Assembly: GCF_051097895.1 (NCBI RefSeq)
Contig: NZ_CP142525.1
Span: 870,001 to 902,000 of the forward strand
Direction of reading: 5' to 3'
Length of the DNA: 32,000 nucleotides
DNA from: Psychrobacter sp. HD31
GTDB taxonomy: Bacteria > Pseudomonadota > Gammaproteobacteria > Pseudomonadales > Moraxellaceae
A program made the translations under genes and the position numbers. This document shows positions 1,927-23,450 of the stretch, one piece after another; the stretch's first letter is position 1; every line of letters starts with the position of its first letter. Under the pieces are notes generated by a model, which saw only the letters and a program-made list of their open reading frames with translations, had not been told where the DNA came from and searched no databases.

Positions 1927-4476
1927 CTACGCCACCGCACGGCGAGACTGGATAATACCAGGTTGTTGTTCTAATTTAGCCAATAGTTTAGACAATTGTG
2001 CCAAACCAGATACCTCAATGTGGAAAGTCATCCGAGCAATATCATCTTCTGTACTCAGGGTTTCTACCTTACGGATATTAATATTCTCATTATCAATCAC
2101 TTCAGATAAACTGCGCAACAAACCTCTACGGTCATAAGCTTCAACTTGCACAACAACAGGCTGTGCCCGCCCAACTTCAGCATACCAAGTGGCATCAATT
2201 TGTCGCTCTGGTTCTTTTTCTATTAAACGTGCATACTCAATACAACCACGGTTATGAATACTGACCCCTTTCGATTGTGTAATAAACCCAGCAATCGGTT
2301 CTCCTTGCACAGGTGAGCAGCATTTAGCTAGGTGAGTTTCAATATTATCTAACCCATCAACATTAATCTCATAGGCATTTAGCTTGCCAGTTGCTTTAGG
2401 ATGAACACTTGGTTTAAATTCAATTTCATCGGCTTCTGGTTCTAAGTCAAGTTCTTTAGAAATTTGGTTAGTTAATTGATGTATACCAATATCGCCTGTA
2501 ACCAAGCCAACCAAAATATCGTCAGCATTATTAACGCTAAAATGATTTGTATAATTGTTCAAATCAATACTGTTGGGATGCACAGACAAACGCTCAAGCT
2601 CTTTGTTAAGCATTTGTGTACCAATTTCAATGTTTTTATCCCTATCTTGACGATTAAACCACTGGCGCAGTTTACTTCTTGCTCGGCTGGTATGGATATA
2701 ACCTAATGAGGGTACAAGCCAATCACGGTTTGGCTCTCTTGCCGCTTTGGTTATAATTTCAACCTGTTCGCCCGTTTTAAGTTTATAAGTTAACGGCACA
2801 TATCTTTGGTTAACCCTTGCTGCTTGGGCACGGTTACCAACTTGAGTATGCACATAATACGCAAAGTCTAAAACCGTTGCACCTTTCGGCAGTTCGGTGA
2901 TTTCACCATCTCGGCTAAAGACATAAATACGCTCAAATTCTTCAAAATCAACGAGTTGTTCTTCTTCATCAAGTTCTACTGTTTCATCAAATTCATCATT
3001 AAACTTGCCATCAGCCCCTGTTTTTTGGTTATCATTTTGTAATGCCAAAAGGTGGCGTAATGAGCTAATCTTTTGATTAAGATAAGTGTCACTCTTACCA
3101 CCCTCTTTATAATTAACATGAGCGCACATACCCAGCTCTGCTTCAAAGTGCATATTATGGGTTCTTATCTGCACTTCTAATGATTTTTGCTCTGCAATGA
3201 CTGCGGTGTGTAGTGAGCGATAACCATTGGATTTTGGGTTGGTTATATAGTCATCAAACTGCTCTGGTATATGCCGCCATAAGCTGTGTACAATACCCAG
3301 CACAAAATAGCATTCGGCTTTGGTATTTACTAAAACCCTTAATGCTCTAATATCATACAACTGATCAAAGGATAGCCCTTTTAATTTCATCTTGCGATAA
3401 ATAGAATAAATGTGCTTCACTCGCCCTGAAACTTCACTTTCAATACCTTCTTCGGCAAGTGCGTCAACCAACTGGTTTTGAACACGCTCAATATAGGCTT
3501 CTCGTTCACTACGCTTTTCTGATAAGAGTTTGGCAATTTCTTTATATCTTTCTGGTGAGGAATAACGAAACGCTAAATCCTCAAGCTCCCACTTTAATTG
3601 CGCAATACCTAAACGGTGAGCAAGTGGTGCATAAATCGTCATCACCTCTCTAGCAACGCGCTTTTGGCGTTCTTCTGGGGCAAATGCAAGCTCTCGCATA
3701 GAAAAAGTACGCTCGGCAAGTTTGATTAAAACCACGCGTACATCATTTGTTACCGAAATCAACATACTGTAAATGTTGGTTAAATGCTCTCGCTGATTAT
3801 TGATAACATAGTCTTCAAGTCGCTGGTTTTTTTCAATGGTTTCCGACAAGCGCCCCATCGCCAGTGCTTCTTGCACAAGGTTGTTGATATTTTTACCAAA
3901 TTTTTCTTCAATCTGTTGCTGCGTAATCAAGGATTCACGAGCACTACGATATAGCATTGCCGCAACAAGCGCTTCTTCATCTTGGTGTAAATACGTTAAG
4001 ATATCCGTCATGCCAATACCTGTGGCAAAAGTACTGGATCTATCTTCATCATTACTTTCATCACACTGTTGAATAAAAGCAACGGCTGTCTTTAAATTAT
4101 CTAATTGCTTTTTCCCAATCCTATCAGCAACTTTTAATAGCCAAGCATCGACATCAATATCAACTTTAAAGTTAATGTTGCCTTCATCTGTATAATGATT
4201 TTTATTTTCTGTTTCTTGTTTTTTTGGGAAGTCCTCAAAATACAAATCAGGCAAATGCACTTCTTCGGCATTATACTGACGTTTGGATGAGCGATCTAAG
4301 GTTGAGTTAAGCTTACGAGTGTGTAGTTGATGGATGTAGTCCTCATGCCAGCTTTGTGCCTTTTTTACTTGGTTGGCTACTTGAGGGACATTTGCAATTT
4401 TTGCCGTGAGACTAACACTGTCTACCTCGGTTATTTGTCCATCTACTAGCGGCAATCCTTCTCTAATTTTTACCAC
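1927..4476 (-). CDS. relA: GTP pyrophosphokinase, RelA-type (p)ppGpp synthetase
   Basis: It has a RelA/SpoT synthetase core (YSIYRKM, NGYRSLHT) with the acidic EQFDDY motif of RelA rather than the RFKD of SpoT. The HD region is degenerate, and TGS and ACT-like C-terminal regions are present. It has a GTG start with AGGAG 7-8 nt upstream and an N-terminal extension of about 100 aa. Confidence 0.9.
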   Translation of the reverse strand: MVKIREGLPLVDGQITEVDSVSLTAKIANVPQVANQVKKAQSWHEDYIHQLHTRKLNSTLDRSSKRQYNAEEVHLPDLYFEDFPKKQETENKNHYTDEGNINFKVDIDVDAWLLKVADRIGKKQLDNLKTAVAFIQQCDESNDEDRSSTFATGIGMTDILTYLHQDEEALVAAMLYRSARESLITQQQIEEKFGKNINNLVQEALAMGRLSETIEKNQRLEDYVINNQREHLTNIYSMLISVTNDVRVVLIKLAERTFSMRELAFAPEERQKRVAREVMTIYAPLAHRLGIAQLKWELEDLAFRYSSPERYKEIAKLLSEKRSEREAYIERVQNQLVDALAEEGIESEVSGRVKHIYSIYRKMKLKGLSFDQLYDIRALRVLVNTKAECYFVLGIVHSLWRHIPEQFDDYITNPKSNGYRSLHTAVIAEQKSLEVQIRTHNMHFEAELGMCAHVNYKEGGKSDTYLNQKISSLRHLLALQNDNQKTGADGKFNDEFDETVELDEEEQLVDFEEFERIYVFSRDGEITELPKGATVLDFAYYVHTQVGNRAQAARVNQRYVPLTYKLKTGEQVEIITKAAREPNRDWLVPSLGYIHTSRARSKLRQWFNRQDRDKNIEIGTQMLNKELERLSVHPNSIDLNNYTNHFSVNNADDILVGLVTGDIGIHQLTNQISKELDLEPEADEIEFKPSVHPKATGKLNAYEINVDGLDNIETHLAKCCSPVQGEPIAGFITQSKGVSIHNRGCIEYARLIEKEPERQIDATWYAEVGRAQPVVVQVEAYDRRGLLRSLSEVIDNENINIRKVETLSTEDDIARMTFHIEVSGLAQLSKLLAKLEQQPGIIQSRRAVA

Positions 4477-19216: not shown

Positions 19217-19362
19217 TATTTACAACTAATAAGCTGAACCATTTCAAATCAAATAAATATAACACTTACGTATCTAAATAAACATTTATTTAAAATGTTA
19301 ATAGATTATAAAACAAGCAAGCGTAGGCTGGTCTTATATCATATTACGTTAGAGAGTTTACT

Positions 19363-19866: not shown

Positions 19867-19896
19867 TTGAAGGTAATGTTATCTACGTAGCAAGTA

Positions 19897-20030
19897 GTAG
19901 GGTGCGTTCCACGCACCATTTTATACAACCAAACCAAATTAAATAAAGATTTTTATGATTAATATCATGTATCTATAAACATAATAAAATCAATATCGTG
20001 TCATCTTTCAGTGCGTGGAACGCACCCTAC
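19897..20030. repeat. REPIN/MITE-like element, family A, copy 1 (inverted REP doublet)
   Basis: Its ends are GTAGGGTGCGTTCCACGCAC ... GTGCGTGGAACGCACCCTAC, perfect 20-nt terminal inverted repeats. Each contains a GGTGCGT/ACGCACC hairpin preceded by GTAG. A second copy with about 10 mismatches lies at 21672-21805. Confidence 0.8.
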
Positions 20031-20038
20031 GCACTGTG

Positions 20039-20153
20039 TTAATTTTTTTTATAAGCTTTGCGAAATTGTTCTATATGTTTGGTAAGTAGTTGTGATTTTC
20101 TATCATACAGGTTTATGGTAATAAAGTAACATCCACCTTTGGTTTTGTCTCAT
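20039..20153 (-). pseudogene. Remnant of a REP-associated tyrosine transposase (RAYT, IS200/Y1 family) N-terminus
   Basis: My minus-strand translation is KTKGGCYFITINLYDRKSQLLTKHIEQFRKAYKKN*. This matches the RAYT N-terminal block as I recall it from E. coli YafM (KGGTWFFTVNLRNRRSQLLTTQYQMLRHAI). The ATG (20153-20151) is in a different frame, implying a frameshift, and the ORF stops after about 35 codons next to an A8 run and a REP. Confidence 0.55.
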
Positions 20154-20241
20154 ATTTAGGTTCGCATGCGCTGATTTATCGTTTGATTTTATGTTTATAG
20201 GCTTTGTTCATAATATCGTTTTTATTTGAACATAACAATTT

Positions 20242-20265
20242 GCTGGGCAAGATGCCCAGCCTACG
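20242..20265. repeat. Solo REP, family B
   Basis: The sequence is GCTGGGCAAGATGCCCAGCCTACG, a GCTGGGCA/TGCCCAGC hairpin followed by CTAC (GTAG on the other strand). Confidence 0.7.
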
Positions 20266-20310: not shown

Positions 20311-20598
20311 TCATGGAATAATCTCATAAGTAAATTTATCTACCCAATTGAATTGTTCATCTTGTTTTTTAGTTTTTTTGAACACTTTAATTATATCATC
20401 AAAAGTATCTATGTTTTTTCTTGACACATCTGCGTTTATCCAAGTGATGTGAACAGGTCTTTCAACATTAGCACTTAATGTGTCCCATAAAGCATCCAGA
20501 TTTTTTCCATAATATTTTTGTATATCAAATACTTTTGCAATTTTATCGTGAAAACCCTGTTCAGTTAAGATTTTTTTTCCATCTAGTACAATATTCAT
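20311..20598 (-). CDS. Barstar-family ribonuclease inhibitor (orphan immunity protein)
   Basis: MNIVLDGKKILTEQGFHDKIAKVFDIQKYYGKNLDALWDTLSANVERPVHITW aligns along its length with B. amyloliquefaciens barstar (..[49 protein letters not shown]), including the barnase-contacting Asp35/Asp39 equivalents. I set the start at the ATG at 20598 rather than the track's TTG at 20610. Confidence 0.85.
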   Translation of the reverse strand: MNIVLDGKKILTEQGFHDKIAKVFDIQKYYGKNLDALWDTLSANVERPVHITWINADVSRKNIDTFDDIIKVFKKTKKQDEQFNWVDKFTYEIIP

Positions 20599-20600
20599 AA

Positions 20601-20684
20601 TTACTTCCAAGTTCCTATAGCTGTTGCTGATTTGTAATGATAGTTTGTGATATATAACAAACCATCATTAGAATAGTTAAGTAC
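20601..20684 (-). pseudogene. Short C-terminal remnant of a barnase-like RNase toxin
   Basis: My minus-strand translation is VLNYSNDGLLYITNYHYKSATAIGTWK*. It resembles the barnase C-terminus (ILYSSDWLIYKTTDHYQTFTKIR) and includes the catalytic His position. The stop is 2 nt before the barstar ATG, and the 5' side is cut off by REPIN-B. Confidence 0.5.
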
Positions 20685-20686
20685 CA

Positions 20687-20820
20687 ATAGGCTGGGCTTA
20701 TAGCCCAGCAGATTATAAAACTAAAAAATCAATACAAACAAACTTTAGAAAAATAACGGATTGAAATATTCGTAAAGTTATACATCCCCTACAAAATAGC
20801 TGGGCAAGATGCCCAGCCTT
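20687..20820. repeat. REPIN/MITE-like element, family B, copy 1
   Basis: The sequence is ATAGGCTGGGCTTATAGCCCAGC ... AGCTGGGCAAGATGCCCAGCCTT. Inverted terminal REP hairpins flank an AT-rich core of about 90 bp. It is near-identical (about 8 mismatches by eye) to 21434-21568. Confidence 0.8.
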
Positions 20821-20830
20821 ATATTCCTTA

Positions 20831-21274
20831 CTAATTCATAATTAGATAAATATTAGGTGGCGACTCATACATAGCATCAAAAAAATTAGCTTCTTTTAAA
20901 TTCATTGTTTGCCATTGCACAACTTCACACATCTGTGCTGTAAGGCTGGTTAAGTATGAATCATTTAATACTAATAAAACTTTTTGAGAAAAAACTGGAT
21001 ACTTATTAACAAACTCTAACCAGCCTACAATATATACATCTTTCCAATTATTCCATTGTTCTATAAACCAATCAGAAACAATATCATGTAAAGCGTCTAG
21101 GTTTTTTCCTATTTGAATGTCCGTACTATAACTGGCTCTAAGATTATTGCCAATAGCTATTAAAAAATCATCTTCTAGCTTACATTGTTTCAGGTTAATA
21201 ATTATATTATCTGAGTTCTCAGACCGTTTTTGACCAAATTGATTCCAGCTTTCTTTATTTTCAAAGACAATCAT
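20831..21274 (-). CDS. Barstar-like immunity protein (extended, 147 aa)
   Basis: The central block DFLIAIGNNLRASYSTDIQIGKNLDALHDIVSDWF carries the barstar GxNLDALxD motif with both Asp retained. Its start codon overlaps the stop of the upstream RNase fragment (ATGA). Confidence 0.7.
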   Translation of the reverse strand: MIVFENKESWNQFGQKRSENSDNIIINLKQCKLEDDFLIAIGNNLRASYSTDIQIGKNLDALHDIVSDWFIEQWNNWKDVYIVGWLEFVNKYPVFSQKVLLVLNDSYLTSLTAQMCEVVQWQTMNLKEANFFDAMYESPPNIYLIMN

Positions 21275-21432
21275 TTTATTCTTCCAAATGAGTCATAATG
21301 AGTACCTGTATAATACATTCTGCCGTCACTACCGACAACGATTCTGTCTGTACCTGCACCTAAACCATCTCTTACATTTTGAATGTCATATTCTTTATAG
21401 GTTATTTTATGACCCGATTTAGTTACAGTACC
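21271..21432 (-). pseudogene. 5'-truncated barnase/RNase Sa-family toxin domain (C-terminal 53 codons)
   Basis: My minus-strand translation is GTVTKSGHKITYKEYDIQNVRDGLGAGTDRIVVGSDGRMYYTGTHYDSFGRIK*. It aligns with RNase Sa (YHEYTVITPGARTRGTRRIICGEATQEDYYTGDHYATFSLID) and barnase (WREADINYTSGFRNSDRILYSSDWLIYKTTDHYQTFTKIR), with the catalytic Glu, Arg and His positions present. It has no start codon, and the upstream side runs straight into REPIN-B. Confidence 0.75.
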
Positions 21433-21433
21433 A

Positions 21434-21568
21434 GTAGGCTGGGCTTTTAGCCCAGAAGATTATAAAACTAAAAAATCAATACAAACAAACTTTAGAAAAA
21501 TAACGGATTGAAATATTCGTAAAGTTATAAACCCCTTACAAAATAGCTGGGCAAAATGCCCAGCCTAC
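21434..21568. repeat. REPIN/MITE-like element, family B, copy 2
   Basis: The sequence is GTAGGCTGGGCTTTTAGCCCAG ... AGCTGGGCAAAATGCCCAGCCTAC. It has the same architecture and core as 20687-20820. Confidence 0.8.
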
Positions 21569-21671
21569 GCTTGCTAGCACCAATGGAATTATTCACATCC
21601 GCTCTACCAATATTGGTTACATTATCCGCATAATAGCCACCCACCACTTGGTCGGGGTTATGTAGACCCAA
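21569..21671 (-). pseudogene. Internal fragment of a toxin-like ORF (possibly an HNH/EndoVII-fold nuclease domain), truncated on both sides by REPINs
   Basis: The minus-strand frame is open across the whole 103-bp unique segment and reads LGLHNPDQVVGGYYADNVTNIGRADVNNSIGASK. The H-x-P-D-x3-G-G ... N-x-S-I-G pattern reminds me of His...Asn cores in polymorphic-toxin HNH-type nucleases. This is recognition from memory only. Confidence 0.35.
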
Positions 21672-21805
21672 GTAGGGTGCGTTTCACGCACCATTTTATA
21701 CAAAAAAGCCAAATTAAATAAAGATTTTTATTATTAATATCATGTATTTATAAACATAATAAAATCAACATCGTGTCATCTTTCAGTGCGTGGAACGTAC
21801 CCTAA
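21672..21805. repeat. REPIN/MITE-like element, family A, copy 2
   Basis: The sequence is GTAGGGTGCGTTTCACGCAC ... GTGCGTGGAACGTACCCTAA. It is colinear with 19897-20030, and its right end provides the stop codon of the 109-aa ORF. Confidence 0.8.
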
Positions 21806-22131
21806 GCACTTCTCCTATAGAATTCTATAAAAACATCATGTTTGTCAGGGCAAGTACGGAAGAATTCTACTTGAGAAGTAGAAAATATCTTGCTATTGAT
21901 GTTATAATCATTTTGTATTGAACTTGCTTCTAAAAAATTATCAATTAATAATGAGAACTCAAACATTATTTCATCTCTTATAACTTCTTCATCTTCATGA
22001 CTTTTATCATTTAGGATAAAATACAGGGATATTTGTTTACCATTCATAGAAAAATAAATTCTCTTGAAGTTATCATTTATCTCACCCAAACAAGCTTGCG
22101 ATAACAAAAAACACACATGAAAAAAATCCAT
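21802..22131 (-). CDS. Hypothetical 109-aa protein (candidate orphan immunity protein)
   Basis: An intact ORF has a strong RBS (AGGAG 7 nt upstream of the ATG). It is small, acidic and cytoplasmic-looking, and its context is a toxin/immunity cassette array. I recognise no family. Confidence 0.5.
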   Translation of the reverse strand: MDFFHVCFLLSQACLGEINDNFKRIYFSMNGKQISLYFILNDKSHEDEEVIRDEIMFEFSLLIDNFLEASSIQNDYNINSKIFSTSQVEFFRTCPDKHDVFIEFYRRSA

Positions 22132-22170
22132 AATCAGCTCCTATTTCACTGGCACTATACTAACTTTCTT

Positions 22171-22187
22171 AGGCTTATAGCCCAGCA
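22171..22187. repeat. Degenerate REP family B half-site
   Basis: AGGCTTATAGCCCAGCA matches the left REP-B (AGGCTGGGCTTATAGCCCAGCA) with a 5-nt deletion that destroys the hairpin. Confidence 0.4.
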
Positions 22188-22407
22188 ATATCATTGCCTA
22201 ACCAACAATACCTAATCGTATTCTAAATCCATTATAGTTAATATACCATCATTACCCCAGTCAGATGAATAAAGACCTTTTTCAATATAGCAAACGCCTC
22301 CAACATTGTTATGCTATGTGCCTTTACTTTTGTTCAATATTATTCTATCAGGGCTATTTTGGCATCTGTTTTTGCGGGGGCTGTTGTGGTGGTTTAGGTT
22401 AGTTGTA

Positions 22408-22429
22408 CTGGGCAAGATGCCCAGCCTAC
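22408..22429. repeat. Solo REP, family B
   Basis: The sequence is CTGGGCAAGATGCCCAGCCTAC, the same hairpin plus CTAC as at 20242-20265 and in the right ends of REPIN-B. Confidence 0.7.
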
Positions 22430-22446
22430 GGTTCCTTTTCAATAAA

Positions 22447-23070
22447 TCAAATTAAATGCAGGTATTTATTGATTATATATTCATATACATGTTTTTTATC
22501 AAACATTGTAATCTCTACTTTAGCAGTGCCACGCTCCCAAAATAAAACTTGCCACTCTGTTTCACTTATTTTTTTTATACTTTCACAATCATTTCGTGTT
22601 TGAAAATCACCATAAAACCAATCTTCAATTTTACCAGTGATAGACTCTTGGTTAATTACAACTTCCTTAAAAACTTCTCGAATCTCATTGATACGTCCAA
22701 CAAAATCTTGATACGTCTCTAAAGGATTCAAGAGAATTGCTACTGCCTCTTCAAAGTTTTTAGTTTCTCGATACCAGCCCTTTGTTGGATATGAATCTAG
22801 ATTTACTGACAGTAATTTTTTTGATTTGTTGCGGTATTGATCAAATAAAACCTGTAAATCAAAAAAGTCTGGATGATATGTACTGATAGATATATGCTTA
22901 CCAGAATCAATTTTATAAATTCTAGATTCATCGCCAAAAGATTCAATCGTGATGCCAGATTCAGACTTTAATGGATAGAGTGTATTACCTACTCTGTCTA
23001 AATCAATATTAAATTCTGTATAAAAAAAACGACGATACTTATTCATTTTTTCCAATCTATCATTGTTCAT
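22447..23070 (-). CDS. Hypothetical 207-aa protein (candidate immunity protein, unknown family)
   Basis: It is an intact ORF with no signal peptide or TM segment. Its ATG directly abuts the TAG of a 27-codon upstream ORF (23071-23154), a coupled arrangement like the toxin-immunity pairs downstream. I recognise no family. Confidence 0.6.
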   Translation of the reverse strand: MNNDRLEKMNKYRRFFYTEFNIDLDRVGNTLYPLKSESGITIESFGDESRIYKIDSGKHISISTYHPDFFDLQVLFDQYRNKSKKLLSVNLDSYPTKGWYRETKNFEEAVAILLNPLETYQDFVGRINEIREVFKEVVINQESITGKIEDWFYGDFQTRNDCESIKKISETEWQVLFWERGTAKVEITMFDKKHVYEYIINKYLHLI

Positions 23071-23427
23071 CTATGTTGGTTCTATACGTTTATAAAATGA
23101 GAAGTTATGTGCATCATACTGTAACTTACCACGCCCATACAAACCAGCAAACATGTAGAGTTTTATTTAAAACTAACCAAAAGAAATTTTTACCCAATTA
23201 TCAAGCGCCAACTTAGGTCGTGTTAACAAGGTACGAGCTTAACACGACAAAATTCTAGTCAGTAAAAAAACACTTAGTTAAGAAAAAACCAGATGCTGAC
23301 ATAGCCCTGATTGCAGCGGTTATACTGCCTGATTTGGTGGGTTGCAAAGGCTAGGTTTTGGCGGGGCGACGCGGTGAGCAAGCGACACGCCAAACCGTGC
23401 CACTGCCCCACAAAAACAGGTAGATAA

Positions 23428-23450
23428 TAGCGAAAAGCAGGTTTTCGCTA
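23428..23450 (-). terminator. Possible terminator hairpin downstream of the DEAD-box helicase gene
   Basis: TAGCGAAAA-GCAGG-TTTTCGCTA forms a 9-bp stem about 65 nt after the helicase stop. On the minus strand a moderately U-rich tract (UUAUCUACCUGUUUUUG) follows. Confidence 0.45.

Follow-up and report, generated by a model that had tools for sequence, protein, structure and literature searches.

The two REPIN-B copies that adjoin truncated RNase toxin genes in Psychrobacter HD31 are probably paralogs derived from a single asymmetric REPIN unit; they would mark sites where dispensable DNA was deleted or rearranged. The 13 extra bases that both copies share beyond the REP end most likely belong to the repeat itself, judging from sequence comparison, so the locus would represent ordinary REPIN behavior in a decaying island with no new link to toxins. 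In our best explanation, these bases are neither toxin-gene sequence nor a conserved toxin boundary, nor do they constitute evidence that RNase genes are targeted. The original prediction, if right, would have made REP/RAYT elements a new driver of toxin–immunity cassette turnover.

We analyzed a stretch of 32 kb (the window). The junctions reside in an accessory island of 4.3 kb at about 19.3–23.5 kb of the window, with 30–34% GC, located between polA and a DEAD-box helicase gene. Eight REP-type elements were found in this island within about 3 kb.

Two REPIN-B copies share sequence beyond the REP end

The two REPIN-B copies and their left flanks are as follows:

20674–20686, plus strand: left flank (5' tail) of REPIN-B copy 1, 13 nt, TAGTTAAGTACCA
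20687–20819, plus strand: REPIN-B copy 1, with the left REP at 20687–20709 and the right, inverted REP at 20799–20819
21420–21433, plus strand: left flank (5' tail) of REPIN-B copy 2, 14 nt, TAGTTACAGTACCA
21434–21577 (end approximate), plus strand: REPIN-B copy 2, of which 21434–21566 is the unit in common with copy 1

On the plus strand, the junctions read TAGTTAAGTACCA/ATAGGCTGGG and TAGTTACAGTACCA/GTAGGCTGGG (a slash marks a boundary here and below), exactly as originally quoted. The similarity of about 13 nt beyond the REP end was likewise confirmed: 13 of 14 nt match to the left of both REP doublets, and the two flanks differ by one 1-nt indel. The REPINs themselves align over 133 nt (20687–20819 against 21434–21566) with seven substitutions (94.7% identity), contain an identical 73-nt core and are spaced 747 nt apart. 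Outside the aligned units of REPIN plus flank, the sequences diverge completely at both outer ends. A chance likeness of two unrelated flanks is effectively refuted: the AT-richness of the region (30–34% GC) raises the number of random matches, but random pairs of 13- and 14-mers came within an edit distance of 1 in 0 of 200,000 trials across the whole window and in 11 of 200,000 trials restricted to the repeat-rich island, some of these stemming from the repeats themselves. Overall, the alignment supports a common ancestry of the two copies, flank included.

Each REP-B consists of (G/A)TAG followed by GCTGGGCT-loop-AGCCCAGC and is predicted by folding to form an 8-bp hairpin in single-stranded DNA. 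Both copies comprise an inverted pair of such REPs and a conserved spacer, the arrangement that defines a REPIN. The right boundary of the unit is ...CAGCC/T, and the left one, read on the minus strand, is ...GTAAC/TA in each copy. The right end of copy 1 lacks the outer ACG and the family extension. Copy 2 has both, its right REP keeping CTACG and the genus-wide REP extension (reverse complement TAGCAAGCG) to about 21577.

The repeats belong to a REP/RAYT family of Psychrobacter

The assignment of these elements to REP/RAYT repeats held, since four other Psychrobacter genomes have intact RAYT genes bordered by this REP. The REP pattern R-TAG followed by GCTGGGC-loop-GCCCAGC was detected in about 25 Psychrobacter genomes, the exact pattern having a low copy number of one to three per genome. 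In four of the genomes examined (L005, L009, L012 and L019), inverted pairs of REP-B, 630–650 nt apart, flank the gene of a 178–179-aa protein that matches the NCBIfam REP-associated tyrosine transposase (NF047646, E = 1.5e-51, above the cut-off) and Pfam Y1_Tnp (PF01797). The intact RAYT gene of L012, which is P. submarinus KMM 225, lies at 3653–4189. The left part of REPIN-B aligns with the 3' flank of RAYT and its downstream REP (85% over 41 nt), and REPIN-B would therefore be a RAYT-less derivative. No toxin or immunity genes were found beside these four REP-flanked RAYT loci, which speaks against the earlier proposal that the REPIN prefers a target inside RNase genes.

Among 41 REPs of other Psychrobacter genomes, the sequence 5' of TAGG is conserved for about 8–10 nt (G at position -3 in 39 of 41, C or T at -4 in 39 of 41, A at -10 in 31 of 41), so that 8 of the 13 flank nucleotides fall within the normal REP footprint. 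The single flank indel sits exactly at the boundary of this footprint. The shared flank as such occurred in none of the 41 REPs and in none of the five other REP-B copies of the window. Its AGTACCA part showed no significant likeness to the genus-wide extension AGCAAGCG (longest common subsequence 7–8 of 9, p about 0.04–0.3), mismatching the best-conserved extension positions, -4 to -6; with the likeness not significant, we rejected the flank as a diverged form of the genus-wide extension (TAGCAAGCG). An apparent flank match in L019 (TAGTTAAGT, 40 nt ahead of the RAYT locus; TAGTTAGG in L005) is a coincidence, because it consists of the tail of a conserved upstream gene together with its stop codon.

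We also scanned broader collections. The genome collection, scanned for further REPIN-B copies, yielded only generic REPs of other species. In metagenomes, the REPIN-B spacer core had no match, and the flank plus REP had one chance match in a high-GC TPR gene. Viral scans with the flank or the REPIN-B spacer returned chance matches or none.

The island as a decayed RAYT locus

In addition to REPIN-B, the island contains the following REP- and RAYT-related features:

19303–19338, plus strand: REP-B vestige at the left island edge, with 12 nt of the REPIN-B spacer start (AGATTATAAAAC), the extension AGCAAGCG and the 5' half of a REP
19896–20035, plus strand: REPIN-A copy 1, abutting the truncation point of the RAYT N-terminal remnant
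20045–20167, minus strand: RAYT pseudogene, N-terminal 41 codons with two in-frame stops (tblastn to the RAYT of L019, E = 8e-15)
20240–20265, minus strand: REP-B upstream of the RAYT N-terminal remnant, 45 nt downstream of imm1
21671–21810, plus strand: REPIN-A copy 2 (second REP family, GTAGGGTGCG...), overlapping the stop codon of orf109
22166–22190, plus strand: REP-B, partly deleted, downstream of the RAYT C-terminal remnant
22215–22289, minus strand: RAYT C-terminal remnant, aa about 155–178 (E = 3.6e-4)
22405–22430, minus strand: REP-B upstream of the RAYT C-terminal remnant, 17 nt downstream of orf207

Both RAYT remnants, N-terminal and C-terminal, adjoin a REP-B copy. The stretch 22215–22289 had been a candidate third toxin remnant and was reassigned to the RAYT C-terminus. 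All complete REP-B hairpins of the 32-kb window lie at 20.2–22.4 kb, and the vestige stretches the cluster to about 19.3 kb. Moreover, each of the four REPIN copies of the island, REPIN-A and REPIN-B alike, has a truncated gene beside it: RAYT, Ntox15, RNase 2 and RNase 1. The REPIN-A copies provide a control within the window, as they also share extra left sequence (TAYGTAG...CAAG) and only one of them abuts a toxin fragment. The island is a RAYT locus in decay, complete with its own cluster of REPs and REPINs, and an array of orphan toxin–immunity cassettes is embedded in it. Since the local RAYT is now a pseudogene, any mobilization must be old or have occurred in trans, a point against the explanation that we favor.

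A protein search with the RAYT N-terminal remnant gave no candidates, and an Rfam search of the island returned nothing relevant. We rejected the reading of the repeats as integron attC sites, given that no integrase was found among the window ORFs and that the REP is tied to RAYT; the GTTRRRY core-site pattern fits one flank (GTTAAGT) and not the other (GTTACAG).

Toxin remnants and the position of the junctions

The toxin and immunity features of the island are:

20311–20598, minus strand: imm1, intact Barstar-family immunity gene, 95 aa (PF01337, E = 5e-20)
20601–20675, minus strand: RNase (barnase-like) toxin remnant 1, last 24 codons and stop, assigned by motif and position
20831–21274, minus strand: imm2, intact, 147 aa, immunity family of the RNase clade of remnant 2 (Barstar sub-threshold, 21.5 bits)
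21271–21419, minus strand: RNase toxin remnant 2, C-terminal half of a barnase-like domain, its frame open through the flank to 21432
21570–21670, minus strand: internal fragment of an Ntox15 nuclease toxin (PF15604 positions 93–123 of 153, E = 3.6e-6)

Both RNase toxins lack their N-terminal parts, and each remnant (a partial PF00545 domain in the case of remnant 2) is followed by an immunity gene. The translation of remnant 2 (21432 to 21271, minus strand) is GTVTKSGHKITYKEYDIQNVRDGLGAGTDRIVVGSDGRMYYTGTHYDSFGRIK, followed by a stop. It matches positions 52–97 of 98 of Pfam Ribonuclease (PF00545, E = 7e-9), the match starting only past the flank, and is 66–75% identical to the C-termini of PT-HINT/RNase toxins. 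The remnant overlaps the start of imm2, which is identical to the Psychrobacter sp. HD31 protein of locus tag VH441_03790 and whose homologues are in every case directly downstream of RNase toxins. An inverted-repeat extension of REPIN-B copy 1 into both flanks (72% over 39 nt) was judged to be chance, because the right arm coincides with the natural terminus of imm2 (LIMN and stop), which homologues conserve.

Remnant 1 (YSNDGLLYITNYHYKSATAIGTWK, followed by a stop) is only 24 codons long and alone gave no Pfam match. Its alignment with the barnase C-terminal motif (Y-S-x-D ... Y-x-T-x-x-H-Y) and its position, ending 2 nt upstream of imm1, point to a barnase-like toxin remnant. The imm1 product is 100% identical to a barstar family protein of Psychrobacter sp. 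HD31, and its closest homologue (41% identical) has no upstream toxin. The Ntox15 fragment is truncated at both ends and bordered by REPIN-A and REPIN-B. Within the 32-kb window, we found no complete toxin and no PT-HINT, Rhs or other delivery domain.

REPIN-B had been placed exactly at the truncation point of both RNase fragments. It does adjoin both 5'-truncated remnants; the truncation point itself is precise only to 0–3 codons, because recognizable toxin homology fades in or beside the shared flank. Remnant 2 starts at about PF00545 position 46–52 and remnant 1 at about position 78, placing the two junctions about 30 residues apart within the RNase domain and in different frames (GTVTK against LVLNY). 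On the minus strand, the copy 2 flank encodes G-T-V-T-(K), with T-G in place of the invariant L-P of homologous toxins, and the copy 1 flank encodes L-V-L-N-(Y) in the frame of remnant 1, where the expected catalytic Arg is not supplied. The flank thus stands where the toxin family has the invariant L-P (remnant 2) and the catalytic Arg (remnant 1). With differing frames, junctions about 30 residues apart and invariant residues not encoded, we rejected the flank as homologous toxin coding sequence. Nor do the junctions show a conserved pre-toxin boundary, a possibility that the original prediction had proposed to check.

Origin of the shared flank

In the explanation that we favor, the copied unit would be asymmetric, having an 11–14-nt tail 5' of the left REP and a right end that falls between C and T within CTAC, the complement of the GTAG head. 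With such asymmetry, the shared 13 nt would be part of the element or would have been carried along at excision. From the two REPIN-B copies, we infer that the 5' tail is element-borne. Copy 1, which has no right-hand extension, may be the daughter of a copy-2-like master. The toxin genes would have lost 5' parts of unequal length and the immunity genes would have been kept whole, the deletions presumably arising by RAYT strand transfer at C/T sites or by REPIN–REPIN recombination. As a counterpoint to an element-borne tail, the last 4–7 nt of the copy 2 flank are readable as native toxin, with T-K-S-G matching the closest homologue (L037), and would therefore fit hitch-hiking or a single ancestral junction over a fixed element end. 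The absence of the flank from the 41 foreign REPs and the five other REP-B copies of the window, and its lack of significant likeness to the genus-wide extension, likewise count against an element-borne tail. It is distinctly unlikely, in our assessment, that RAYT cleavage and strand transfer at C/T beside REPINs causes the adjacent deletions, disarming orphan toxins, sparing immunity genes and destroying its own transposase gene. If true, the REP/RAYT system would actively shape immunity-only islands.

The counterpoint raised by copy 2 bears on an alternative history, in which one ancestral junction of REPIN-B and toxin 2 (the flank being toxin-2 DNA) underwent REP-mediated tandem duplication, and an illegitimate deletion then fused the 13 nt to the toxin 1 tail. 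We consider this unlikely, although several observations agree with it. The flank is private to the REPIN-B pair, absent from the 41 foreign REPs and the other REP-B copies of the window; it has diverged (1 of 14) about as much as the REPIN (7 of 133); and T-x-T-K-S-G of remnant 2 matches P-T-K-T-K-S-G of the closest homologue, so that part of it may be native toxin 2. In addition, there is precedent for duplication and deletion mediated by REPs (van der Ende 1999, as cited in PMC10210955), and tandem REPIN clusters are described as including flanks. However, such a history demands both a duplication and a deletion ending 13 nt into the duplicate, it does not predict the missing right-hand extension of copy 1, and the flank fails to encode the invariant L-P. 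The toxin 1 junction is also not at the homologous position, which argues against homologous recombination between the two RNase genes. This history corresponds to the "one event followed by replacement" of the original prediction, and the explanation that we favor does not need it. It also appears highly unlikely that RAYT-driven insertion or strand transfer was directed by a chance motif in barnase-like genes (about TAGTTA on the plus strand, AAC/TA on the minus strand), only AGTACCA(R) being element-borne. The indel indeed falls between AGTACCA and TAGTTA, precisely at the border of the 8-nt slot (AGCAAGCG in other REPs), TAACTA overlaps native-looking codons (T-K in remnant 2, Y in remnant 1), IS200/IS605 relatives use guide-chosen targets of 4–5 nt (PMC8266576), and RAYTs cut C/T or C/A (PMC3333891). 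With regard to a fixed target of 4–5 nt at the left end, as in IS200/IS605, both REPIN-B copies share TAGTTA past the 8-nt slot and none of the 41 other REPs shows such a motif, a comparison drawn from few REPIN-B copies. Yet beyond the 8–10-nt extension the 41 other REPs show no conserved motif, a shared target of 6 nt exceeds the known targets of Y1 transposases, and there are two cases only. Since neither the position nor the frame of the motif would agree between the two toxins, RNase genes would be involved only incidentally. The originally proposed preference for a target within RNase genes is thus not supported, given the position and frame of the junctions and the absence of the flank from all 41 foreign REPs.

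The original prediction had further suggested that REPIN-B may serve as a portable homology block for swapping toxin and immunity modules. It would then be comparable to the conserved pre-toxin region of Rhs/CDI orphan modules. On the coding strand, each REPIN-B indeed precedes a unit of toxin remnant and immunity gene, with the spacing of 747 nt, and the REPINs are about 95% identical next to cassettes that are unrelated in sequence. Nevertheless, we regard this function as very improbable. The related RNase/immunity arrays (L033–L038) carry PT-HINT coding sequence before each toxin domain and no REP. REPIN-B could not form an in-frame part of a live toxin gene, since a stop ends the toxin frame about 13 codons into it (48-aa ORF, 21525–21671), and a swap through the untranslatable REPIN could therefore never give a live toxin. 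Furthermore, a full-length toxin gene was not found in the window, the two junctions lie at different domain positions, and the RAYT neighborhoods of the four other genomes are free of such cassettes.

Comparison with known systems

The closest parallels are the REPtrons of Pseudomonas fluorescens SBW25 (Bertels & Rainey 2011, PMC3116915) and Escherichia coli (Ton-Hoang et al. 2012, PMC3333891). These share with HD31 the GTAG-headed hairpin REPs, inverted doublets and conserved spacer; a single RAYT gene flanked by the same REPs, with REPIN clusters adjoining it; shared flanks in clustered copies, longer on the 5' side; and an asymmetric unit that has a 5' tail and whose right end is at or inside CTAC. 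In SBW25, excised REPINs retain a single-stranded tail at the 5' end and fall short at the right-hand REP, and in tandem REPIN clusters, which adjoin RAYT genes, the repeated sequence includes more of the 5' flank than of the 3' flank (PMC3116915). In E. coli, TnpA-REP cuts C/T inside CTAC as well as C/T sites up to more than 400 nt from the REP, and joins them (PMC3333891). In contrast to these systems, the HD31 RAYT is a split pseudogene, its cluster is embedded among toxin–immunity cassettes, and its REPINs abut truncated coding sequences rather than clean intergenic DNA. The link between REP/RAYT elements and toxin loci had been put forward as new. Their physical co-location is real, and stronger than was realized, given the presence of RAYT pseudogene remnants in this island. 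The interpretations specific to toxins did not hold up, and both flank sharing by clustered REPINs and clustering beside RAYT were already described (PMC3116915).

The cassettes resemble the orphan toxin–immunity arrays of Rhs/CDI systems (PMC3150448) and those formed by sequential displacement in Vibrio cholerae (PMC5361080): intact immunity genes follow 3' fragments of their cognate toxins, and several unrelated cassettes stand in a row in a low-GC island with no delivery domain. Unlike those arrays, whose remnants keep or border a PT-HINT, VENN or PAAR/Rhs core, HD31 has a REPIN in place of this block, and its island has no adjacent full-length toxin locus. REP-type repeats at the endpoints of gene loss or inside coding sequences are also known from deletions by REP-cluster recombination at porA of Neisseria meningitidis (van der Ende et al. 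1999, as cited in PMC10210955) and from intragenic REP insertions (Di Nocera et al. 2013, PMC3733652). Those cases differ from HD31 in involving other REP families and other genes, and, as far as these accounts describe them, include no analysis of shared tails and no RAYT remnant.

IS200/IS605 elements such as IS608 and ISDra2 have in common with the HD31 repeats a Y1 HUH transposase, subterminal hairpins, a short sequence next to the left end (fixed in those elements, shared by the two REPIN-B copies here), and a left end reaching well past the hairpin; that of IS608 extends about 19 nt beyond it. Unlike these elements, the REPIN has no internal transposase gene and no demonstrated target tetranucleotide, and RAYTs behave as single-copy domesticated genes (PMC5581495).

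The value of this locus lies in documenting a REP/RAYT family in Psychrobacter and in providing a natural case in which REPINs stand at every gene-truncation junction of a small island, that of the RAYT gene included. Its boundaries fall at C/T dinucleotides and could serve to examine the rules of RAYT cleavage in organisms other than E. coli. Taken together, the evidence places the locus, on our analysis, within known REPIN biology (RAYT-adjacent clusters, asymmetric units and shared flanks) combined with the known decay of orphan toxin arrays.

A decayed RAYT locus in a low-GC island

The repeats lie in an island at ~19.3–23.5 kb of the window, in which GC content falls to 30–34% (45–47% outside) and all genes are on the minus strand. 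It holds two copies each of REPIN-A and REPIN-B, three further REP-B copies and one REP vestige; across the remaining ~28 kb of housekeeping genes, no further complete REP hairpin was found. Its features include:

19303–19338, plus strand: REP-B vestige between polA and a lipoprotein gene, marking the island’s left edge
20045–20167, minus strand: RAYT N-terminus (E=8e-15) with two in-frame stops
20242–20260, 20798–20818, 21545–21565 and 22405–22430, all minus strand: REP-B hairpins
Downstream of REPIN-B copy 1: RNase toxin remnant 1, YSNDGLLYITNYHYKSATAIGTWK*, 24 codons left, aligned to the barnase C-terminal motif
2 nt after remnant 1: imm1, an intact Barstar gene (E=5e-20)
Downstream of REPIN-B copy 2: RNase toxin remnant 2, GTVTKSGHKITYKEYDIQNVRDGLGAGTDRIVVGSDGRMYYTGTHYDSFGRIK*, Pfam Ribonuclease positions 52–97 of 98 (E=7e-9)
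21570–21670, minus strand: Ntox15 nuclease fragment, internal (positions 93–123 of 153), on the other side of REPIN-B copy 2
22215–22289, minus strand: RAYT C-terminus (E=4e-4)

The REP was found in ~25 Psychrobacter genomes when one genome per species was scanned. At four RAYT loci from this genus (L005, L009, L012 and L019), an inverted REP pair 630–650 nt apart flanks a 178–179-aa protein that matches the NCBIfam family “REP-associated tyrosine transposase” (E=1.5e-51) and Pfam Y1_Tnp, confirming and strengthening the REP/RAYT identity originally proposed for the elements. The left part of REPIN-B aligns to the RAYT 3′ flank and downstream REP, and REPIN-B is thus a RAYT-less derivative, i.e., a REPIN. 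In Psychrobacter coccoides (L005, 4375–7931) and P. submarinus (L012, 408–4246), an intact RAYT locus lies downstream of parC, separated from it by a small ORF of unknown function, a site that differs from the polA–helicase island of the window.

The island itself is a decayed RAYT locus. Both RAYT pieces adjoin a REP-B, and REPIN-A copy 1 cuts off the N-terminal piece. The vestige begins with 12 nt that match the start of the REPIN-B spacer exactly (AGATTATAAAAC), continues with the family extension AGCAAGCG and ends in half a REP. A third toxin remnant, considered at 22215–22289, was rejected given the RAYT C-terminus match there. On the coding strand the C-terminal piece comes first, with ~1.9 kb of cassettes between it and the N-terminal piece; this order implies either that two RAYT copies decayed here or that a rearrangement took place.

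The classical position of a REP is just 3′ of an ORF on its coding strand, and all intact ORFs of the island have a REP hairpin there, within 0–50 nt. For three of the four (imm1, the 147-aa immunity gene imm2, and orf207) this is a REP-B hairpin ~10–50 nt downstream, two of which score as terminator-like and are followed by a T-rich run; the fourth, orf109, runs into REPIN-A. The hairpin at 21545–21565 is preceded only by the Ntox15 fragment. A truncated gene adjoins all four REPIN copies.

Orf109 (21802–22131; 109 aa, no family match) has its last codons and stop (21802–21810) within the right end of REPIN-A copy 2, which may have truncated the ORF or may provide its stop codon. Around the 207-aa ORF (22447–23070) and one REP, we observed a 27-nt inverted repeat (22347–22373 and 23285–23311, 85% complementary), unrelated to REP-A or REP-B, that may delimit a further small element or cassette. 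The DEAD-box helicase gene is closely followed by a sub-threshold match to the Rfam family Flavo-1 RNA (23299–23448, plus strand; 39.2 bits, where the gathering score is 42, and a 74-nt loop insertion) that overlaps one arm of this inverted repeat.

The flank shared by the two REPIN-B copies

The original prediction held that similarity between the REPIN-B copies continues ~13 nt beyond the REP end. The junctions, read from the sequence, are present as quoted: TAGTTAAGTACCA (20674–20686) followed by ATAGGCTGGG at copy 1, and TAGTTACAGTACCA (21420–21433) followed by GTAGGCTGGG at copy 2. A single indel is the sole difference between the two flanks, and none of 200,000 random 13/14-mer pairs drawn from the window matched as well, so the shared extension is real. 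Beyond the flank and the shared unit, the two copies diverge wholly on both outer sides. Aligned over 133 nt (20687–20819 and 21434–21566), they differ by seven substitutions, all in or near the REP ends, leaving a 73-nt core identical. Were differences randomly spread, such clustering would have a probability of (60/133)^7, or ~0.004, which points to gene conversion or chimeric copies, or to a constrained spacer. The REPIN-A copies also have extra left-hand sequence in common, though just one adjoins a toxin fragment.

The extension is common to both copies, but much of it does not lie beyond the REP. Across 41 REP copies taken from other genomes, conserved sequence runs on for 8–10 nt 5′ of TAGG (consensus (T)AGCAAGCG), indicating that the REP edge was originally drawn too tightly; the same 5′ extension is present at the right end of REPIN-B copy 2 and in REPIN-A copy 1. 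The normal REP footprint takes in 8 of the 13 flank bases, and the indel falls exactly at its edge. The flank’s AGTACCA was absent from every other REP checked (the 41 foreign REPs and the other REP-B copies of the window) and bears no significant resemblance to AGCAAGCG, so it is not supported as a variant of the extension. By these comparisons, the left flank is private to the REPIN-B pair.

Toxin remnants and the origin of the truncations

A conserved pre-toxin boundary at the junctions is contradicted by their positions on the RNase profile (~46–52 in remnant 2, ~78 in remnant 1) and by the reading frames of the flank, GGT ACT GTA ACT A and TTG GTA CTT AAC TA, respectively. Nor is the flank toxin sequence: in remnant 2 it takes the place of L-P, which does not vary among the three closest toxins, and in remnant 1 that of the catalytic Arg, and the Pfam match to remnant 2 begins only past it. 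No more than its last few bases could be native toxin sequence, namely those for T-K in remnant 2 and, in remnant 1, the Y codon. Remnant 2 shares 66–75% identity with the C-termini of PT-HINT/RNase toxins, and its stop overlaps the start of imm2, whose homologues consistently lie directly after such toxins. The imm2 stop codon is 8 nt from REPIN-B copy 1, on the side opposite remnant 1.

In related arrays elsewhere (L033–L038), a PT-HINT coding block precedes every RNase domain and no REPs were found. In two of these, both metagenomic (L037, 888–1079; L038, 768–941), the next orphan cassette begins ~50 nt past an immunity gene with a PT-HINT fragment, showing what the REPIN-B copies replaced in the window. 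Toxin and immunity genes were likewise absent from the RAYT neighbourhoods of four other Psychrobacter genomes. The toxin-specific readings, which would tie REP/RAYT biology to toxin-locus turnover, are not supported. Scans of metagenome and viral sequences for the flank or the REPIN-B spacer found no more REPIN-B copies.

Since each REPIN-B copy separates two unrelated stretches of DNA, neither is a simple insertion. The simplest routes to the truncation points are REPIN-adjacent deletion through strand transfer at C|T sites and recombination between REPIN copies, both of which would act in DNA whose immunity genes alone remain under selection. Both ends of the Ntox15 fragment are cut, with REPIN-A bounding one and REPIN-B the other, as would be expected had repeat copies inserted in different genes recombined.

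Comparison with known REPIN/RAYT systems

The left boundaries of both REPIN-B copies read ...GTAAC|TA on the minus strand, and the shared unit ends on the right at ...CAGCC|T; the outer ACG and extension are kept in copy 2 and missing from copy 1. These boundaries fit an asymmetric RAYT-type unit, of which we infer copy 1 to be the daughter copy, and the 5′ tail may be a fixed end of the element, toxin-2 DNA that hitch-hiked with it, or a short target. Excised REPINs of P. fluorescens SBW25 retain a 5′ single-strand tail and end short at the right-hand REP; where REPINs are clustered in tandem, more of the 5′ than of the 3′ flank is repeated, and REPIN clusters lie beside RAYT genes (PMC3116915). 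On single-stranded DNA, the E. coli TnpA-REP cleaves C|T within CTAC as well as C|T sites at distances of up to more than 400 nt, and it also joins such sites (PMC3333891); the choice of site differs among RAYTs (PMC8266576). REP-mediated deletions are also known (van der Ende 1999, as cited in PMC10210955). The locus falls within known REPIN biology, as a cluster of REPINs at a decayed RAYT locus that overlaps with an orphan toxin–immunity array.
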